A stretch of DNA of 64,000 nucleotides from an uncultured Candidatus Bathyarchaeia archaeon (GTDB lineage: Archaea > Thermoproteota > Bathyarchaeia > Bathyarchaeales > DTEX01): assembly GCA_964422605.1 (NCBI GenBank), contig CAYRBK010000001.1, positions 34,025-98,024 of the forward strand, given 5' to 3'. A model generated the notes under the pieces. It searched no databases, was not told the DNA's origin, and saw only the letters and a list, made by a program, of their open reading frames with translations. The translations under genes and the position numbers were made by a program. This document shows positions 3,457-41,714 of this stretch, one piece after another; the first letter of the stretch is position 1; each line of letters opens with the position of its first letter.

Positions 3457-5808
3457 TCACGTTTCCTCCTTCTTTCTTATCATTCTGGGCAGAAGGGTCG
3501 GGTCCGGCGTCTTCCCTTCTTTCCAGCCTTTCTCTTTCAGAACCGCCATGATCTCATCCCTCATAGTGATTGGAACATCTGCAGCGGTTCGGATGAAGAG
3601 GTGAAGATCATCCGGCATCGTGCCACATAGACGCTTGCTCAAGTCGACATAGTGAGTCAGCTTAACCGCACGTCCCTTCGCAGTGTCGTTGGGCCGCATA
3701 CAGAGTTTGGCAGTCATGACCATGGCTTCCTCCTTGGTCTCGGCTGCAAAGAACAGATGTTCCGGAGTGGGACCGGCATAGACGCGGTCTCCTGTGCGAG
3801 CGTCATAGACATACCAGTCCTCGTCAAGGTCCTTCCTGCCAAGAAGCACGCGTCGGTACTTGGAGCCATGGGGACCCACGATCACGGGAACTCCCAGCCT
3901 CCAGAAACCGCCTGCTATTGAGGCTGCCTTCTGGGACATAGCTCCCCAAGCGACCCCAACCGCCCCCACTCGGTTGTGAATGTAATCAGCAATCTCTTCA
4001 TAGTTTCCTAGCAGTTTCCGTTTGGCGAATATGCTGGCGATCTTTATCGCTGCACCAGCTATATGCGAGTTAGCGACGCATGAGCCTACGTTTACTATGC
4101 CCCCAGCGTCGAAGGCGCCCGAGTAAGCCTCATACGGGTTCTTCCCTTCTTGGTCCTTGTACATGGCAGCTGACATTGCCGAACATCCGGATGTGAGCAC
4201 GATGTAGCGGCGCTTGGCAAACTCGATAGCCATCTCTGCGACTTCCTCCCCGCCTTTAGGGTAGTTGGCGCATCCCACGAAGGCGATGACGCCCGGTATT
4301 TCACCCAGAACTATGGGGCCGCCGACGTTTCTTATCTCGACATCTTGTATTGCCCCTCTTCCCGCACGGATCAAGTAGGCCTCTTGCTTCATTTCTTTCT
4401 CAGCGGCCTTCGCGATGAAGCTATGAATAGCCAGATTTTCGGGACATGCGCTCTCGCAGCGGGCGCATCCGATGCAATCGTCATAGAGGTCTGCAAGTTT
4501 CCTCAGCTTCCCGTTTGCAGCCTCTATCACGGCTTCGAGGATGGGCAAGTCGTTGGGGCAAGCTCTCACACATTCGTAGCACTTTCTGCAGGTCTTTGCG
4601 TCTTCAATAATTCTTCTCGAGCTAGGGATAGCCTTAAGCTTCTTCCGTTTCGGAGCTATCAGAACAGCTGTTCTAGCAGCTACTTCGCCGACTTTCTCAG
4701 GCTCAAGAATAAGAGCGCCCGGAATCTTTCCACTGACAAGATCTGCCACGATGGCATCGGCTTGGTCATGGGTTCGGTTTGGCAAACCTAGGCAGTTTTT
4801 CGCGCTTGAGGCGATGAGGGGCGCCTTGATCTTTTTGGCCTCATCGAGGGAGTCGGCGCGTATGCATTGCTCATCGACAACTATAACGTCGGGGATGCCG
4901 CTCCTTAAGTAACGCAGCTGCCACGAGATGGGTCCGACAATCTTGGCCTTCGGCTCGTACCTTGTGATGTCATGAGCGGTGCAGCAAAGGCCTGTGACCT
5001 CAACCATGCCCTGCAATCCGTTGTGCTCAAGATAATCCGAGATCTCAACTGCGGGCAGAATGTTATGTCCAACGACCATGATGACTGGTTTCGAAGCGTC
5101 TATCGTGCCTAACCCTATGTTGACCAGGGGAGCCTCGGGATCAGCCTTTGGGAGGTTGAGGGCAGATATCTGGGCAATGTCAGCGACTTCCAAGGAAACC
5201 TGGTCTATCATGCCTGCATGGAAAACCTTGGATTCGAAGTCGAGGCTGCTTCCTTCCTGACCTGTGTGGGTTGCCGAGAGCAAATGGGTGACTTCGGTCT
5301 CGCAGTAATCTAGGACTTCCTCCAGATCCTCAAGAGTTCTTGGCTCGATTCCGCAGACTAGGCGGGTCACTGGAGCCTCAACCTGCACATTCAAGCCGCC
5401 CACATCTATTCTGCATTCCCGACCGGACTTCTCCATCAGATGTTCAACTAGGTGCCTTGCATGAGCAAGATGGGTTGCAGCGCCTATGCAACATGCCAGC
5501 AATACTATGCGCGATTGCTGCGCAGCCATGTCTAGACCGCAGGCTCCACGTTTGCCCTGTGACAAGTCGCATTTCCCGAAGGTGCATAGGCAACAGACGT
5601 CACAGAAAGGCATGTAGAAAGGTCTGTACTTCTGCAGAAGCTTGAAGTCCCATTCTCTTAGTTCAGTGGTGGATGGGAACGGTGTTGGACCCAATTCCTC
5701 GGCTGGGGCTGCCTCAACAATCCTGCCAACGGTGAGTTCAAAACCCTTCAATGTGCCGAGGTTGCTCTTCAACTCGTCGATCTTTATGTGCATTCCCTTT
5801 CTGGGCAC
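3457..5808 (-). CDS. cdhA: Acetyl-CoA decarbonylase/synthase alpha subunit (Ni-CO dehydrogenase)
   Basis: 783-aa ORF with N-terminal Cys clusters (CDVCCLCTFGKCDL) and an inserted 2x[4Fe-4S] ferredoxin motif (CRKCYECVRACPN / CIGCARCESACPE). The start is either GTG at 5808 or ATG at 5793. Confidence 0.9.
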   Translation of the reverse strand: MPRKGMHIKIDELKSNLGTLKGFELTVGRIVEAAPAEELGPTPFPSTTELREWDFKLLQKYRPFYMPFCDVCCLCTFGKCDLSQGKRGACGLDMAAQQSRIVLLACCIGAATHLAHARHLVEHLMEKSGRECRIDVGGLNVQVEAPVTRLVCGIEPRTLEDLEEVLDYCETEVTHLLSATHTGQEGSSLDFESKVFHAGMIDQVSLEVADIAQISALNLPKADPEAPLVNIGLGTIDASKPVIMVVGHNILPAVEISDYLEHNGLQGMVEVTGLCCTAHDITRYEPKAKIVGPISWQLRYLRSGIPDVIVVDEQCIRADSLDEAKKIKAPLIASSAKNCLGLPNRTHDQADAIVADLVSGKIPGALILEPEKVGEVAARTAVLIAPKRKKLKAIPSSRRIIEDAKTCRKCYECVRACPNDLPILEAVIEAANGKLRKLADLYDDCIGCARCESACPENLAIHSFIAKAAEKEMKQEAYLIRAGRGAIQDVEIRNVGGPIVLGEIPGVIAFVGCANYPKGGEEVAEMAIEFAKRRYIVLTSGCSAMSAAMYKDQEGKNPYEAYSGAFDAGGIVNVGSCVANSHIAGAAIKIASIFAKRKLLGNYEEIADYIHNRVGAVGVAWGAMSQKAASIAGGFWRLGVPVIVGPHGSKYRRVLLGRKDLDEDWYVYDARTGDRVYAGPTPEHLFFAAETKEEAMVMTAKLCMRPNDTAKGRAVKLTHYVDLSKRLCGTMPDDLHLFIRTAADVPITMRDEIMAVLKEKGWKEGKTPDPTLLPRMIRKKEET

Positions 5809-5941
5809 TTAGGCACACTGTCCTCTCACGTTAGCGGGCGTGTTAGCAGAAGATTCGGAATGTAGTATTTAATCCTATCTTCACTAGTTCTCCCAAGTCA
5901 TCAGTCGGCATAGCAGGTGGAAAGAAGGTCTCACTCACTGC

Positions 5942-6487
5942 TTATGGGCGTCGTAGATAGGTTCTACAAGCTGACAACATTACCCACGAAACGGCTGCTG
6001 TCGCTGATATGGACTCAGGAACCGAGATACCGGCCCTATAAAACCCCGCCCAATAGAGTAACCACGAACTGAGACCAATCGTTAAAGCCGTTATAGCTGC
6101 GAAAGATCTTTTCTCAACAGCATAGACCAATGTCGACACGCCAAGCGATATGAAGAACAGCACCGATACCGCCAGGTGAAGCGCGCCATAAACCTCATCG
6201 AAGACGGCCACTAGCTGAAGGAGAAAGGCTGAGATTGCCAAGCAGACACTCGTGTGTTTGGCGTGCGTTCTGAGCGCCGTAACCGCGTAGGCTACGGTGA
6301 GGAAACCGCAGGACGCAAGGCCGAGGTTGAAGTAGGGCGCAGACTCGCTTCGGAGAGCATGCCCAAGATCGCTCAAGGCGTTATCCCACCAACTGAACCA
6401 TGGCGCTTTGACTATGGAGATTCCGATGAAGACGTAAGCCAGCACCGGTCCGATCAGACCAAACAGGGCAAATCCCCTATTGTGCAT
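5942..6487 (-). CDS. DUF998-like integral membrane protein
   Basis: 181-aa ORF with about 6 predicted TM segments and a WWDNALSDLG motif resembling the DUF998 family. Confidence 0.55.
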   Translation of the reverse strand: MHNRGFALFGLIGPVLAYVFIGISIVKAPWFSWWDNALSDLGHALRSESAPYFNLGLASCGFLTVAYAVTALRTHAKHTSVCLAISAFLLQLVAVFDEVYGALHLAVSVLFFISLGVSTLVYAVEKRSFAAITALTIGLSSWLLYWAGFYRAGISVPESISATAAVSWVMLSACRTYLRRP

Positions 6488-6782
6488 GTCGGAATCCTCT
6501 GAAGGAACGATGAATACGGTAATACTTGTCTGCTACCAGTTTAAAAGTGTGGTCTCCCATTCGTCCCGCACCTGGAAAAGGATACCTCCAGAGGGCATGT
6601 CTGGGTTTCTTTGGTTAAGAAGACAGGAAGGATGAGCTATCTCCAGCAGAGGGCTCTGATTTGTGTGCTCAGTGGAAAAATGTTTTGTGGCGTAAAGAGT
6701 GTCCGTGACCATGACGGTTACGCATGTCGCGAAGCCTTGCATCTATCATTGCGGTCAGTTGGCGTGCGGCAAGGCTACCGGG

Positions 6783-7709
6783 CTAGGGAGTGTTCAGGAT
6801 TCGGGTGGTTATGGTTTCTGGTTTGAAGGGTTCGAGGTCTCCGTATCTCTGCCCAGTTCCGACATACAGTATCGGCTTCTTCGTCACATAGGTCACCGAT
6901 ATGGCTGCTCCTCCCTTTGCGTCTGCATCTATCTTGGTCAGGATGGAGCCGTCGATGCGAACGGATTTGCTGAACTCTTCGGCTTGGGAGACGGCGTCGT
7001 TTCCTGCCAAGGCGTCTCCGACAAAGATGACCATGTCGGGCTTGACCACGCGGACGACCTTCTCCATCTCCATTAGGAGGTTCCTATTTGTCTGCATACG
7101 ACCGGCGGTATCAATCAAGACAACGTTTATGCCTCGAGCCCTAGCATACTGTACAGCGTCAAAGGCTACGGCAGCTGCATCTGCGCCGTACTGGTGTTTG
7201 ATCATGTGGATGCCAAGACGCTTCGCATGGGTCTCGAGCTGCTCTATGGAACCTGCACGGAAAGTATCGCTTCCTGCTAGGACAACGGAGTATCTTTCCT
7301 TGAGAAGAAGTTGAGCAACCTTCGCTATGGTTGTGGTTTTACCGGTGCCGTTTATGCCGACGAAGACGATTGTGCAAGGCTCCTTCATCGTCCGTTTCTT
7401 ATCAACAAGCTCCATCAGGTCGATTCGATCAGGCGATTCTAAAGTCTCAAGCAGAACGGTTCGCAAGGTTTCCTTTATGAGCTGCCTGCGGTCTTCGAGT
7501 CTGCTCACTTTCAGCCCAGTAAGCCTTCTCTCAATCTCTCCACATATGTGCTCTGCGACAACGAGAGCTACGTCGTTCTCGACCAAGGTTAGCTTGAAAT
7601 CCCAGAGAACTGCACGGAGGTCTTCGCCCCCAAGCTCTGTCGTGGAGATTCTGTTGACTAGTCCTCTGACGCTTTCACGGAGCTTCTCGAACATTCCTGC
7701 TTCTCTCAC
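6783..7709 (-). CDS. ftsY: Signal recognition particle receptor FtsY
   Basis: SRP-GTPase motifs GINGTGKTTT, DTAGR and TKIDA. The likely true start is MFEKLRES at 7694. Confidence 0.92.
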   Translation of the reverse strand: MREAGMFEKLRESVRGLVNRISTTELGGEDLRAVLWDFKLTLVENDVALVVAEHICGEIERRLTGLKVSRLEDRRQLIKETLRTVLLETLESPDRIDLMELVDKKRTMKEPCTIVFVGINGTGKTTTIAKVAQLLLKERYSVVLAGSDTFRAGSIEQLETHAKRLGIHMIKHQYGADAAAVAFDAVQYARARGINVVLIDTAGRMQTNRNLLMEMEKVVRVVKPDMVIFVGDALAGNDAVSQAEEFSKSVRIDGSILTKIDADAKGGAAISVTYVTKKPILYVGTGQRYGDLEPFKPETITTRILNTP

Positions 7710-40170: not shown

Positions 40171-40852
40171 CGCCTGTCAATCCTCGTACTTCGTGGAGAC
40201 CTAATCCTAGGGAAACGAGCGATTGGATCGAACAGCCTCTGGTTTGCTCTCACACTGTTCGAGGACAAGGATGCCACCGTGAAAACCGCTTGGCGGTGTT
40301 CATCGAAATGCAAAGGCACGTCTCAGGGAAGCCGCTCACTCGGTTCCGGTATGCCTTCGGACTTCACGAACCATCATGAACACCTAAGAAACTCTAGCTT
40401 CGCAAAACCCATATAAGTGTTATGTCGCGCAGGATCAGGCTACCGCATGCTGTTGAGGTTTCTTCTTTTGGCGATAGGTTTATCTGAAAAATCGTCATCT
40501 CATATACCGGCGATGAGATGAGCTCTTGGAATCCCGCCGGAACCCCGAAAAGGGGCCCGCCTAGACGGACTCAACCGAGGTGGGTGATGCTTTACTCATC
40601 TATGAAGAAGGGTTTACCCAGATGCGGGACAAGGCGGGCGTGGGCGCCTGAAAATCCGCGTGAGAGAGAGCTTAGCTGAGAAGAGCGGACCCGCTCGGCT
40701 ATGATGCTGAGTGTTAGTTGCGCGGAACACAGGGGCGTCCACGACACAAATTTCCGAGCCTAGGGAACAGTAAGAAAGATCACCCTAGCAGAGATTCCGC
40801 CGATAGTCAGGTCGCGTGCAACCAAGGTTGAAGCGGAAGGTGAGCCGCCTTA
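40171..40852. other. 680-bp ORF-free, helix-rich non-coding region
   Basis: No ORF of 60 aa or more lies between ~40200 and 40785 in any frame. A central AT-rich segment (40380-40506) carries TATA-like boxes on both strands, and GC-rich blocks full of long perfect helices flank it. Confidence 0.7.
40655..40729 (+). ncRNA. Candidate box H/ACA guide sRNA hairpin
   Basis: Lower stem UCCGCG/CGCGGA (40655-60 / 40721-26). Pocket strands UGAGAGAGAG and UGUUAGUUG. Upper stem CUUAGC/GCUGAG with a U:G pair. K-turn formed by CUGA (40676-79) opposite AUGAUGC (40701-07, bulge UAU). Apical stem GAGCG/CGCUC. ACA at 40727-29 lies 15 nt from the upper-stem base. Confidence 0.45.
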
Positions 40853-41074
40853 CTACGCTCCGGTCTTCTCCTCTTTCTTGTAGAACCCCGTCCACTTGAG
40901 CTTGCGTGGATCGCGACCGAGCCTCAAAGCGTTTTTCCTGCACTTGCTTGAACAGAACCACAGGGTTGACCCGTCGTTTCTGACGTACATCATCCCTGTT
41001 CCGGGGGGAAACTCGTGTCCACAGAAGGTGCATCGTTTGGGTTTGGGCATCTTTGTTCTATCTCCGCCATCCAA
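40853..41074 (-). CDS. rpl24e: Ribosomal protein L24e
   Basis: Zinc ribbon [31 protein letters not shown]. The start may instead be MPKPKRC at 41050. Confidence 0.9.
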
Positions 41075-41115
41075 TCATTGTCTAGGTGGATGCTTGAAGG
41101 CTTAGCGCTGCCCTG

Positions 41116-41334
41116 TCACCTTATTCTTCTCGCTTCCCTCTCAGTCTCCCTCAGCATGAGCACATCGTCCAGACGAACAGGTCCCTTAACATTCCTAGTG
41201 ATTATGCGTCCCTTGTCAGGACCTTCGAGGACTCGAACTCTAACCACTCTAACTTCACCCGTCGCGCCGGTTCGCCCAACTATCTGGATAACCTGCGCCG
41301 GAGTCAGAGCCTCTTGACCTTCCCTCTGGCTCAT
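41116..41334 (-). CDS. rps28e: Ribosomal protein S28e
   Basis: 72 aa with [25 protein letters not shown]...[21 protein letters not shown]. Confidence 0.92.
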
Positions 41335-41714
41335 GCGCCAAATCCTTCCTTGATCTTCTGAACGCGAGTAACTATCTCTTTGACCAGGTCTGAGGCTTCA
41401 CCAGTTTCGACTATGCATGCTGCAGCAGACTGAACATCTATCCCTACCGCTGTGCCCAGTTTTGCCTTGCTGGGAACAAAAACGTACGGGATTTTCCTTT
41501 CCTCGCAGAGGATCGGCAGATGGGCGACAACTTCGGGGGGGTCAACGTCCTCCGATATGACGACAAGCTTCGCCTGTCCTCTCTCTACGGCTTTTGTTGT
41601 CTCGTTGGTGCCCTTCCTTATGTTGCCAGTTCGCGTTGCTATCTGTAACGCGTCGTAGGTAGCGTTGGCAACCTCGGTCGGAACCCCAAACTTAGCATAA
41701 AAAGGCTTCGACAT
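41331..41714 (-). CDS. rpl7ae: Ribosomal protein L7Ae (K-turn binding protein)
   Basis: 127 aa with [40 protein letters not shown]. Confidence 0.93.

Follow-up and report, generated by a model that had tools for sequence, protein, structure and literature searches.

Two described archaeal box H/ACA systems come closest to the RNA reported here. In Haloferax volcanii, sR-h45 is a double-hairpin RNA of ~200 nt, whose 5′ hairpin (SL1) makes pseudouridine (Ψ) 2605 in the peptidyl-transferase centre (PTC) and whose 3′ hairpin (SL2) makes Ψ1940 and Ψ1942 in the loop of helix 69 (H69) via an atypical pocket that leaves 'UNUN' unpaired. Converted through the H. marismortui numbering offset, Ψ2605 equals E. 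coli position 2586 and Ψ1940/1942 equal positions 1915/1917. In the HgcG/Pab40/Pf7/Afu-4 family (RF00064), motif 3 of Pab40/Pf7 guides the conserved Ψ of stem-loop 69, and motif 2 of Afu4/Pf7 has been assigned to the equivalent of H. marismortui Ψ2621 (PMC2377435). We analysed a 64,000-nt stretch of DNA from an uncultured Candidatus Bathyarchaeia archaeon (contig CAYRBK010000001.1, positions 34,025–98,024; hereafter the window), in which a first-pass annotation had read a hairpin at 40655–40729 on the plus strand, here called HP2, as a box H/ACA guide. HP2 is the 3′ half of a conserved, unannotated two-hairpin H/ACA RNA of ~240 nt, located at about 40509–40750 (+). Judged from its sequence, this small RNA (sRNA) probably has its own TATA promoter and employs HP2 as its 3′ guide unit for helix 69 and the 5′ hairpin, HP1, as a guide for the PTC.

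Anatomy, conservation and class of the element

Read from the window sequence, HP2 runs UCCGCG-UGAGAGAGAG-CUUAGC-UGA-GAAGAGCG-GACC-CGCUCGGC-UAU-GAU-GCUGAG-UGUUAGUUG-CGCGGA-ACA (two-digit numbers below are the last digits of a position). Its lower stem (P1) pairs UCCGCG (40655-60) with CGCGGA (40721-26) over 6 bp and can be extended through U61·G20 and G62·U19 to 40655-62/40719-26, giving 6–8 bp. The internal loop comprises 10 nt (40661-70) and 9 nt (40712-20), or 8+7 nt with the extended P1, and its pocket strands occupy 40661-70 on the 5′ side and 40712-19 on the 3′ side. The upper stem (P2; CUUAGC 40671-76 with GCUGAG 40706-11, including the pair U73·G09) leads into a kink-turn (K-turn) formed by U77·U05, G78·A04 and A79·G03 with the 3-nt bulge U00 A01 U02. 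The apical part (40680-99) consists of the C-stem pair G80-C99, two A·G mismatches, a 5-bp stem (40683-87/40692-96) and a GACC loop, and the ACA box (40727-29) follows the lower stem directly, 15 nt past the last upper-stem base. Stems, loop, K-turn, apical hairpin and ACA spacing had all been proposed in the first-pass annotation, and the sequence bears out each of them.

The folding of HP2 is strand-specific, since the plus strand folds at −33.7 kcal/mol with z = −4.16, whereas the minus strand of the region reaches z = −0.66, no better than shuffles. A descriptor requiring a P1 of at least 6 bp, pockets of 5–11 nt, a P2 of 5–7 bp, GA/GA pairs with a 3-nt bulge and an ACA 14–16 nt from P2 matched HP2 alone across both strands of the window, and shuffled windows (n = 40) contained a mean of 0.025 matches each. 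HP2 is confirmed as real and no chance match.

HP1 (40556–40631, +) displays the same H/ACA anatomy. Its P1 (CCCGC/GCGGG, 40556-60/40624-28; 5–6 bp) opens into a loop of 8+10 nt with the 5′ pocket strand CUAGACGG (40561-68) and the 3′ pocket strand UUACCCAGAU (40614-23). P2 and the K-turn occupy 40569-78/40601-13, with CCGA facing UAU-GA-A; the apical stem (40579–40600) is highly variable, with double changes at six pairs, and the invariant ACA (40629-31) is spaced 15 nt from the P2 base.

Published rules for archaeal H/ACA RNAs specify an H2 of 5–6 bp and an ANA 14–16 nt from the pocket (PMC2377435, PMC7075261), together with a distal G:A 9–10 steps from the pocket (PMC7075261); measured to the target, the ANA distance is 14–15 nt (PMC2377435). 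Both hairpins obey these rules. In HP2, 6 bp followed by U·U, G·A and A·G place the distal G:A at 9 steps, and in HP1 it lies at 10. A stem with a two-sided loop (5–11 nt per strand), a K-turn, the ANA spacing and covarying pairs are likewise found in both.

Relatives were sought in 80 L7Ae loci (81 with the window), in which the element was located by BLAST and alignment. It is present in 8 of the 80 related Bathyarchaeia loci (L001–L004, L006–L008 and L010); L008 is a cut copy, pair statistics count the eight full-length sequences, and L008 brings the copies to nine. The conserved block extends from ~40509 to 40750 and is far larger than HP2. The RNAalifold structure has 63 pairs, with compensatory changes at 17, and in a hand-curated structure of 59 pairs that keeps the pockets open, the paired fraction of cells is 96.8%, compared with ~41% when the partners are slid. 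In this curated structure 17 pairs show double changes, and none of 500 shuffles reaches any of these measures. Among the covarying positions, G58:C23 in HP2 P1 becomes A:U in three of eight sequences (four of nine including L008), U72:A10 in HP2 P2 becomes C:G in three, and U71:G11 in HP1 P2 appears as CG four times, UA three times and UG once. Many G·U pairs, such as 40670·40712 in 8/8 sequences, correspond to C·A on the opposite strand, and the RNA strand is therefore the plus strand.

Conservation within the element is highest in the guide strands, with GAGAG[A/G]G and UGUUAGU in the HP2 pocket, and also AACACA, invariant. The GA-repeat pocket strand had been flagged as a low-complexity caveat; that concern falls away, as the strand is an invariant one, complementary to the 3′ strand of helix 69 (CUCUCUU). 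The K-turns of both hairpins keep G(1b), A(2b) and A(1n) in every copy, and A or U stands in for G(2n) in one of nine copies of HP2 and in three of eight of HP1. HP1 shows no change in the UGA of its bulged strand or in A40578, and the ACA boxes of both hairpins are unchanged in all copies. Conservation in relatives had been named in the first-pass annotation as a check, and it speaks for the guide: the K-turn GA pairs, ACA and spacing are kept in the nine orthologous copies, and the stems covary. A covariance model (R1) run over the 81 L7Ae-linked sources and 100 rRNA-linked loci recovered no copies beyond the nine already known. Matches to a pocket-like regular expression at syntenic places in L025, L037, L076 and L077 proved to be unrelated sequence.

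At gathering thresholds, Rfam returned no match in the whole window. In E-value mode, cmscan gave HgcG (RF00064) 11.2 bits in the window and 13.6 bits in L006, with the third HgcG motif aligned to HP2; HgcG/Pab40 is the only H/ACA family matched in both copies searched and the best H/ACA family match in each. The Rfam comparison suggested by the earlier annotation therefore yielded a weak similarity to HgcG and nothing at gathering level. The RNA does not formally belong to RF00064, as it scores under 77 bits and has two H/ACA hairpins instead of three. From its sequence we take it to be a previously unannotated box H/ACA guide sRNA of the ordinary kind, newly seen in Bathyarchaeia. A box C/D sRNA was considered and rejected, since the C/D-like boxes here are opposed within the hairpins, where they make up the K-turns; a reading of the 5′ GCGAUGA as a C box was also rejected, there being no conserved partner CUGA near the 3′ end.

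Predicted rRNA targets

The first-pass annotation had derived from the pocket a full-length target, CAACUAACA-UN-CUCUCUCUCA, which does not exist: a search of the window and of the 80 L7Ae loci found neither its 15-nt core (ACUAACA-U-N-CUCUCUC) nor a shorter core (CUAACA-U-N-CUCUC), and no pairing near such a length turned up in the 16S and 23S rRNA of six Bathyarchaeia operons. A wobble-tolerant version of this target produced scattered chance matches in the window and L7Ae loci and was set aside. Because the window and the L7Ae loci contain no rRNA, Bathyarchaeia rRNA operons were retrieved via the Bathyarchaeota 16S primer MCG242dF (PMC7056671), giving six loci with complete 16S and 23S genes (L140, L161, L176, L180, L183 and L191). 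Sites are given in E. coli numbering.

Under a flexible model allowing 2–6 unpaired target bases, the top 23S match of HP2 was helix 69, gaguaac[UCUGA]cucucuu, in three of three operons among the matches listed. In this H69-loop register (4+7 bp), GUUA pairs with U1911–C1914 and GAGAGAG with C1920–U1926, and U1915 and U1917 are left unpaired. For HP1, the top conserved match was the PTC, augggu[UUAGA]ccgucg, where ACCCA pairs with U2580–U2584 and GACGG with C2590–C2594 (5+5 bp) and the unpaired segment holds U2585/U2586; among the matches listed, it ranked first in two operons and second in L180. Shuffled guides had their best match at the same sites in 5.5% of cases for HP2 and helix 69, and in 1.0% for HP1 and the PTC. 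What survives of the target search proposed earlier is thus a partial pocket pairing with 23S helix 69 (~4+7 or 5+4 bp), in place of the full-length target. Pseudouridylation of 23S helix 69 and the PTC is the most likely function of the RNA.

When the scan was restricted to the canonical geometry of two unpaired bases, the best conserved HP2 match again fell in helix 69, at U1921, in five of the six operons; the sixth has an intron there. This register comprises 9 bp (5+4; GUUAG/CUGAC and GAGA/UCUU), with GUUAG on C1916–C1920 and GAGA on U1923–U1926. Scores of the canonical model do not exceed those of shuffled guides (P = 0.37 and 0.19). Canonical-geometry targets of HP1 were weak or non-conserved, such as the 16S match 'gguag[U]cccggg' (5+3 bp), and were not retained.

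These canonical results open a first alternative, in which guiding by the H/ACA RNA is genuine but HP2 works solely in the canonical register, on U1921, with HP1 an orphan or directed at a target outside the PTC. U1921, which we take to be the position of yeast Ψ2264, is the best conserved match of 'UN' geometry; its register has the stronger 3′-guide duplex (5 bp, GUUAG/CUGAC) and accounts for the invariant G40717. However, two of its nine pairs are G·U, it engages only four of the seven invariant GAGAGAG bases and leaves the invariance of G40664 and A40665 unexplained, and its score is not above that of shuffled guides. An orphan HP1 is further countered by the coincidence of its best match with the PTC, reached by 1% of shuffles, and by the precedent of sR-h45 and Pf7. 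We consider this alternative improbable as a complete account. The invariant G40717 fits the U1921 register, and the invariant G40664 and A40665 fit the H69-loop register; as a single archaeal H/ACA motif can serve as many as three sites (PMC2377435), both registers of HP2 may be used.

Several observations weigh against a double guide for helix 69 and the PTC. The rRNA sequences come from other Bathyarchaeia and not from the source genome. In the flexible model, the pairing scores are no better than with shuffled guides (P = 0.37 and 0.68), and both preferred pairings leave 5 target nt unpaired against the canonical 2; we found no documented case as wide as five unpaired target bases in the literature consulted. 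In the H69-loop register the 3′-guide duplex of HP2, the critical one according to Muller et al., is just 4 bp, and the lower stem of HP1, with 5–6 bp, is shorter than the at least 7 bp of the descriptor of those authors. The HgcG scores (11–14 bits) lie far under the gathering score of 77, the element was found only in the closest clade (9 of 81 L7Ae loci), and a search of the window and all fetched loci for Cbf5/Nop10 signatures found none. Architecture, conservation and guide-strand tests are nonetheless all consistent with an H/ACA guide, as the first-pass annotation had proposed.

Two features of the Bathyarchaeia 23S rRNAs concern the predicted sites. In the 23S rRNA of L161 (minus strand, 3619–7475, 3857 nt), helix 69 is interrupted immediately 3′ of GACUCUC by an insertion or intron; since this lies inside the predicted HP2 target, guide pairing there would need spliced rRNA. 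The sequence around E. coli position 2579 is GAGAUGGGUUUAG in each of the six Bathyarchaeia 23S rRNAs; its counterpart in E. coli and H. marismortui is presumably GAGCUGGGUUUAG. G40621, invariant in the HP1 guide, would form a pair with the C normally present at 2579, not with the Bathyarchaeia A.

Outer helices, promoter and neighbouring operon

Beyond the two hairpins, the conserved block contains two outer helices. Helix A joins CCCGCC (40533–40538) to GGCGGG (40633–40638) and encloses HP1 together with a small variable hairpin, CCCC-GAAAA-GGGG (40543–40555), which covaries in sequence and length across orthologues. All six helix A pairs are formed in every sequence, with double changes at two of them (CCCACC/GGUGGG in L004, CCAGCC/GGCUGG in L003). 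Helix B encloses HP2 and pairs CGUGGGCGC (40639–40647) with its 3′ strand GCGUCCACG (40735–40743); behind the 3′ strand comes a terminal A-N-A (the two together 40735–40746), which is ACA here and AUA in most orthologues. The nine pairs of helix B are 98.6% paired and hardly vary; a single G-C to G-U change and one alternating CG/UA pair lend it weak covariation support. Helices A and B therefore clamp HP1 and HP2, respectively, and both ACA boxes fall in junctions or internal loops. As the 3′ strand of helix A is contiguous with the 5′ strand of helix B, the two could stack. To our knowledge, such outer clamping helices are not part of described archaeal H/ACA RNAs.

Upstream, GG-TTTATCT (40477–40485, +) combines bases resembling a B recognition element with a TATA box at 40479-85. 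An A/T-rich TTTAT(C/T)T-like box is aligned in 8/8 full-length orthologues (TTATTTT in L004, TTTAAGT in L001), and in all eight full-length copies a TATA-like box lies 30–32 nt upstream of a conserved R-GCGAUGA. Given the usual archaeal spacing from TATA to start, the RNA would begin at ~G40509. The first-pass annotation had seen no TATA ~26 nt upstream of HP2 and suggested a longer transcript; the box is indeed missing there because the promoter sits ~150 nt upstream, and in place of an undefined precursor HP2 has a two-hairpin RNA of which it is the 3′ half. The 5′ leader, G-GC-GA-UGAGAU-GA-GC-U (40509–40524, +), keeps GCGAUGA and GAGC in 8/8 copies (consensus R-GC-GA-UGANAU-GA-GC-Y), and its closing R:Y pair is G:U here, A:U in four copies, G:C in two and A:A in one. 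The leader could fold into a kink-loop (K-loop) mini-hairpin with a covarying closing pair and so offer L7Ae a third site, at the predicted 5′ end of the RNA. At the other end, a short T-run (40751–40753, +) probably marks the terminator region; a run of 3–5 T occurs at most ~25 nt past helix B in most orthologues, L004 excepted, and sequence conservation ends there.

The RNA is convergent with an L7Ae-S28e-L24e operon on the minus strand (40853–41714), whose products match Pfam Ribosomal_L7Ae (1e-30), Ribosomal_S28e (6e-30) and Ribosomal_L24e (4e-22); the L7Ae protein is 82–85% identical to L7Ae of Bathyarchaeia metagenome-assembled genomes (MAGs), which by itself assigns the window to this lineage. 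The proximity pointed out in the first-pass annotation is real, HP2 ending 124 nt from the L24e stop codon, and in 9/9 loci the sRNA is located past L24e on the opposite strand. The flanks at 40171–40510 and 40746–40860 show no conservation in related loci. Between a gene for an ATP-binding cassette (ABC) transporter ATPase and the sRNA promoter lie ~300 nt (40171–40476) without a convincing open reading frame, likewise not conserved in relatives.

This constant linkage invites the idea of an L7Ae-binding RNA that regulates or titrates the protein of the adjacent operon, its H/ACA features being vestigial. Besides the linkage in 9/9 loci, two K-turns with a possible third K-loop at the 5′ end and guide–target scores at chance level would suit such a role. 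L7Ae binding, however, needs neither an ACA at exactly 15 nt nor invariant pocket strands, both of which are hallmarks of Cbf5-dependent guiding, and the RNA is convergent with the operon and lies outside its 5′ untranslated region (UTR), so that we regard a purely regulatory role as very unlikely. A terminator or 3′-UTR structure of the L24e operon on the minus strand, or a chance hairpin, can practically be dismissed: the element does lie ~110–320 nt beyond the end of the L24e reading frame, and its reverse complement can also fold into a hairpin, but the minus-strand fold (z = −0.66) is no better than shuffles, the conserved G·U pairs work on the plus strand only, a conserved TATA box stands upstream on that strand, 0.025 such hairpins are expected per shuffled window, and 17 pairs covary.

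The fetched rRNA loci provided two further observations. The 16S rRNA gene of L180 (3791–6172) measures 2382 nt against a model of 1478 positions, which makes a large insertion or intron likely. An archaeal RNase P RNA gene lies ~100–130 nt downstream of the 23S gene in L161 (3155–3487, −) and in L180 (9501–9787, +).

Proposed mode of action, known guides and significance

For the preferred reading, a double H/ACA guide directed at helix 69 and the PTC, we infer transcription from the RNA's own TATA promoter, convergent with the L7Ae-S28e-L24e operon. Each hairpin would bind L7Ae at its K-turn and Cbf5–Nop10–Gar1 at the lower stem and ACA, after which its internal loop would open and pair with 23S rRNA. 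On helix 69, HP2 would leave U1915-C-U1917-G-A unpaired at the catalytic site, in an atypical 'UNUN'-type pocket like that of sR-h45 SL2; an alternative or additional canonical register of HP2 would present U1921. On the PTC, HP1 would present U2585/U2586.

The predicted targets and the order of the hairpins match two known archaeal RNAs. Like sR-h45, the Bathyarchaeia RNA is a molecule of ~200–240 nt with two H/ACA hairpins and a K-turn in each; as predicted here on heterologous rRNA, its 5′ hairpin would be directed at the uridine run of the PTC and its 3′ hairpin at the loop of helix 69, and its H69 unit would have an atypical pocket with more than two target bases unpaired. The two RNAs differ in the number of these bases, four in sR-h45 (UAUG) and five here (UCUGA), and in the PTC unit, which is typical in SL1 and would be atypical here. 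sR-h45 has a 56-nt spacer with a possible pseudoknot, whereas the 23-nt linker here is consumed by helices A and B; the small extra hairpin and the conserved 5′ leader are additional in the Bathyarchaeia RNA in this comparison of described architecture.

With motif 3 of HgcG/Pab40/Pf7/Afu-4 (RF00064), HP2 has three elements in common: a 3′ pocket containing GUGUUA, a K-turn strand with AUGA, and the ACA box. The order of a PTC guide followed by an H69 guide would also be shared with Afu4/Pf7, given the assignment of motif 2 to the Ψ2621 equivalent. HgcG RNAs differ in having three H/ACA hairpins rather than two and a consensus 5′ pocket of GGGUUAG instead of GAGAGAG, so that pairing with H69 would be shifted ~3 nt to the 3′ side, and Pab40 has a C in the 3′ pocket where HP2 has G.

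Helix 69 is also modified under RNA guidance in eukaryotes, by yeast snR191 and other small nucleolar RNAs (snoRNAs), a single pocket serving its two most conserved uridines. Eukaryotic H/ACA snoRNAs lack K-turns and use Nhp2, and the likeness to snR191 and its counterparts lies in RNA-guided H69 pseudouridylation, with no homology claimed. The Bathyarchaeia H69, GUAACUCUGACUCUCUUAAGG, is nearly identical to what we take to be the eukaryotic sequence.

More tentatively, the RNA may represent an ancient archaeal guide in which a PTC unit (U2585/2586) followed by a helix-69 unit in one molecule is common to Bathyarchaeia (TACK), haloarchaea and Thermococcales/Archaeoglobus. The Bathyarchaeia variant would be distinguished by an outer clamp helix around each unit, a K-loop at the 5′ end as third L7Ae site and two pockets each open over 5 nt, perhaps modifying 1915, 1917, 1921, 2585 and 2586 through register sliding on the GA repeat. 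We give this extended scenario clearly less credence than the guide itself.

A full-text literature search found no paper linking Bathyarchaeia to box H/ACA RNAs or pseudouridylation. The element would add to this class an H/ACA guide RNA that Rfam does not detect, and related MAGs can be annotated for it with the help of the alignment and model. Its wide pockets offer natural test cases for the 'atypical pseudouridylation' rules drawn from sR-h45. If the predicted targets are true, helix 69 and the PTC, home to the two Ψ clusters most central to large-subunit function, would share one linked double guide across distant archaeal phyla, which bears on the age of this arrangement.

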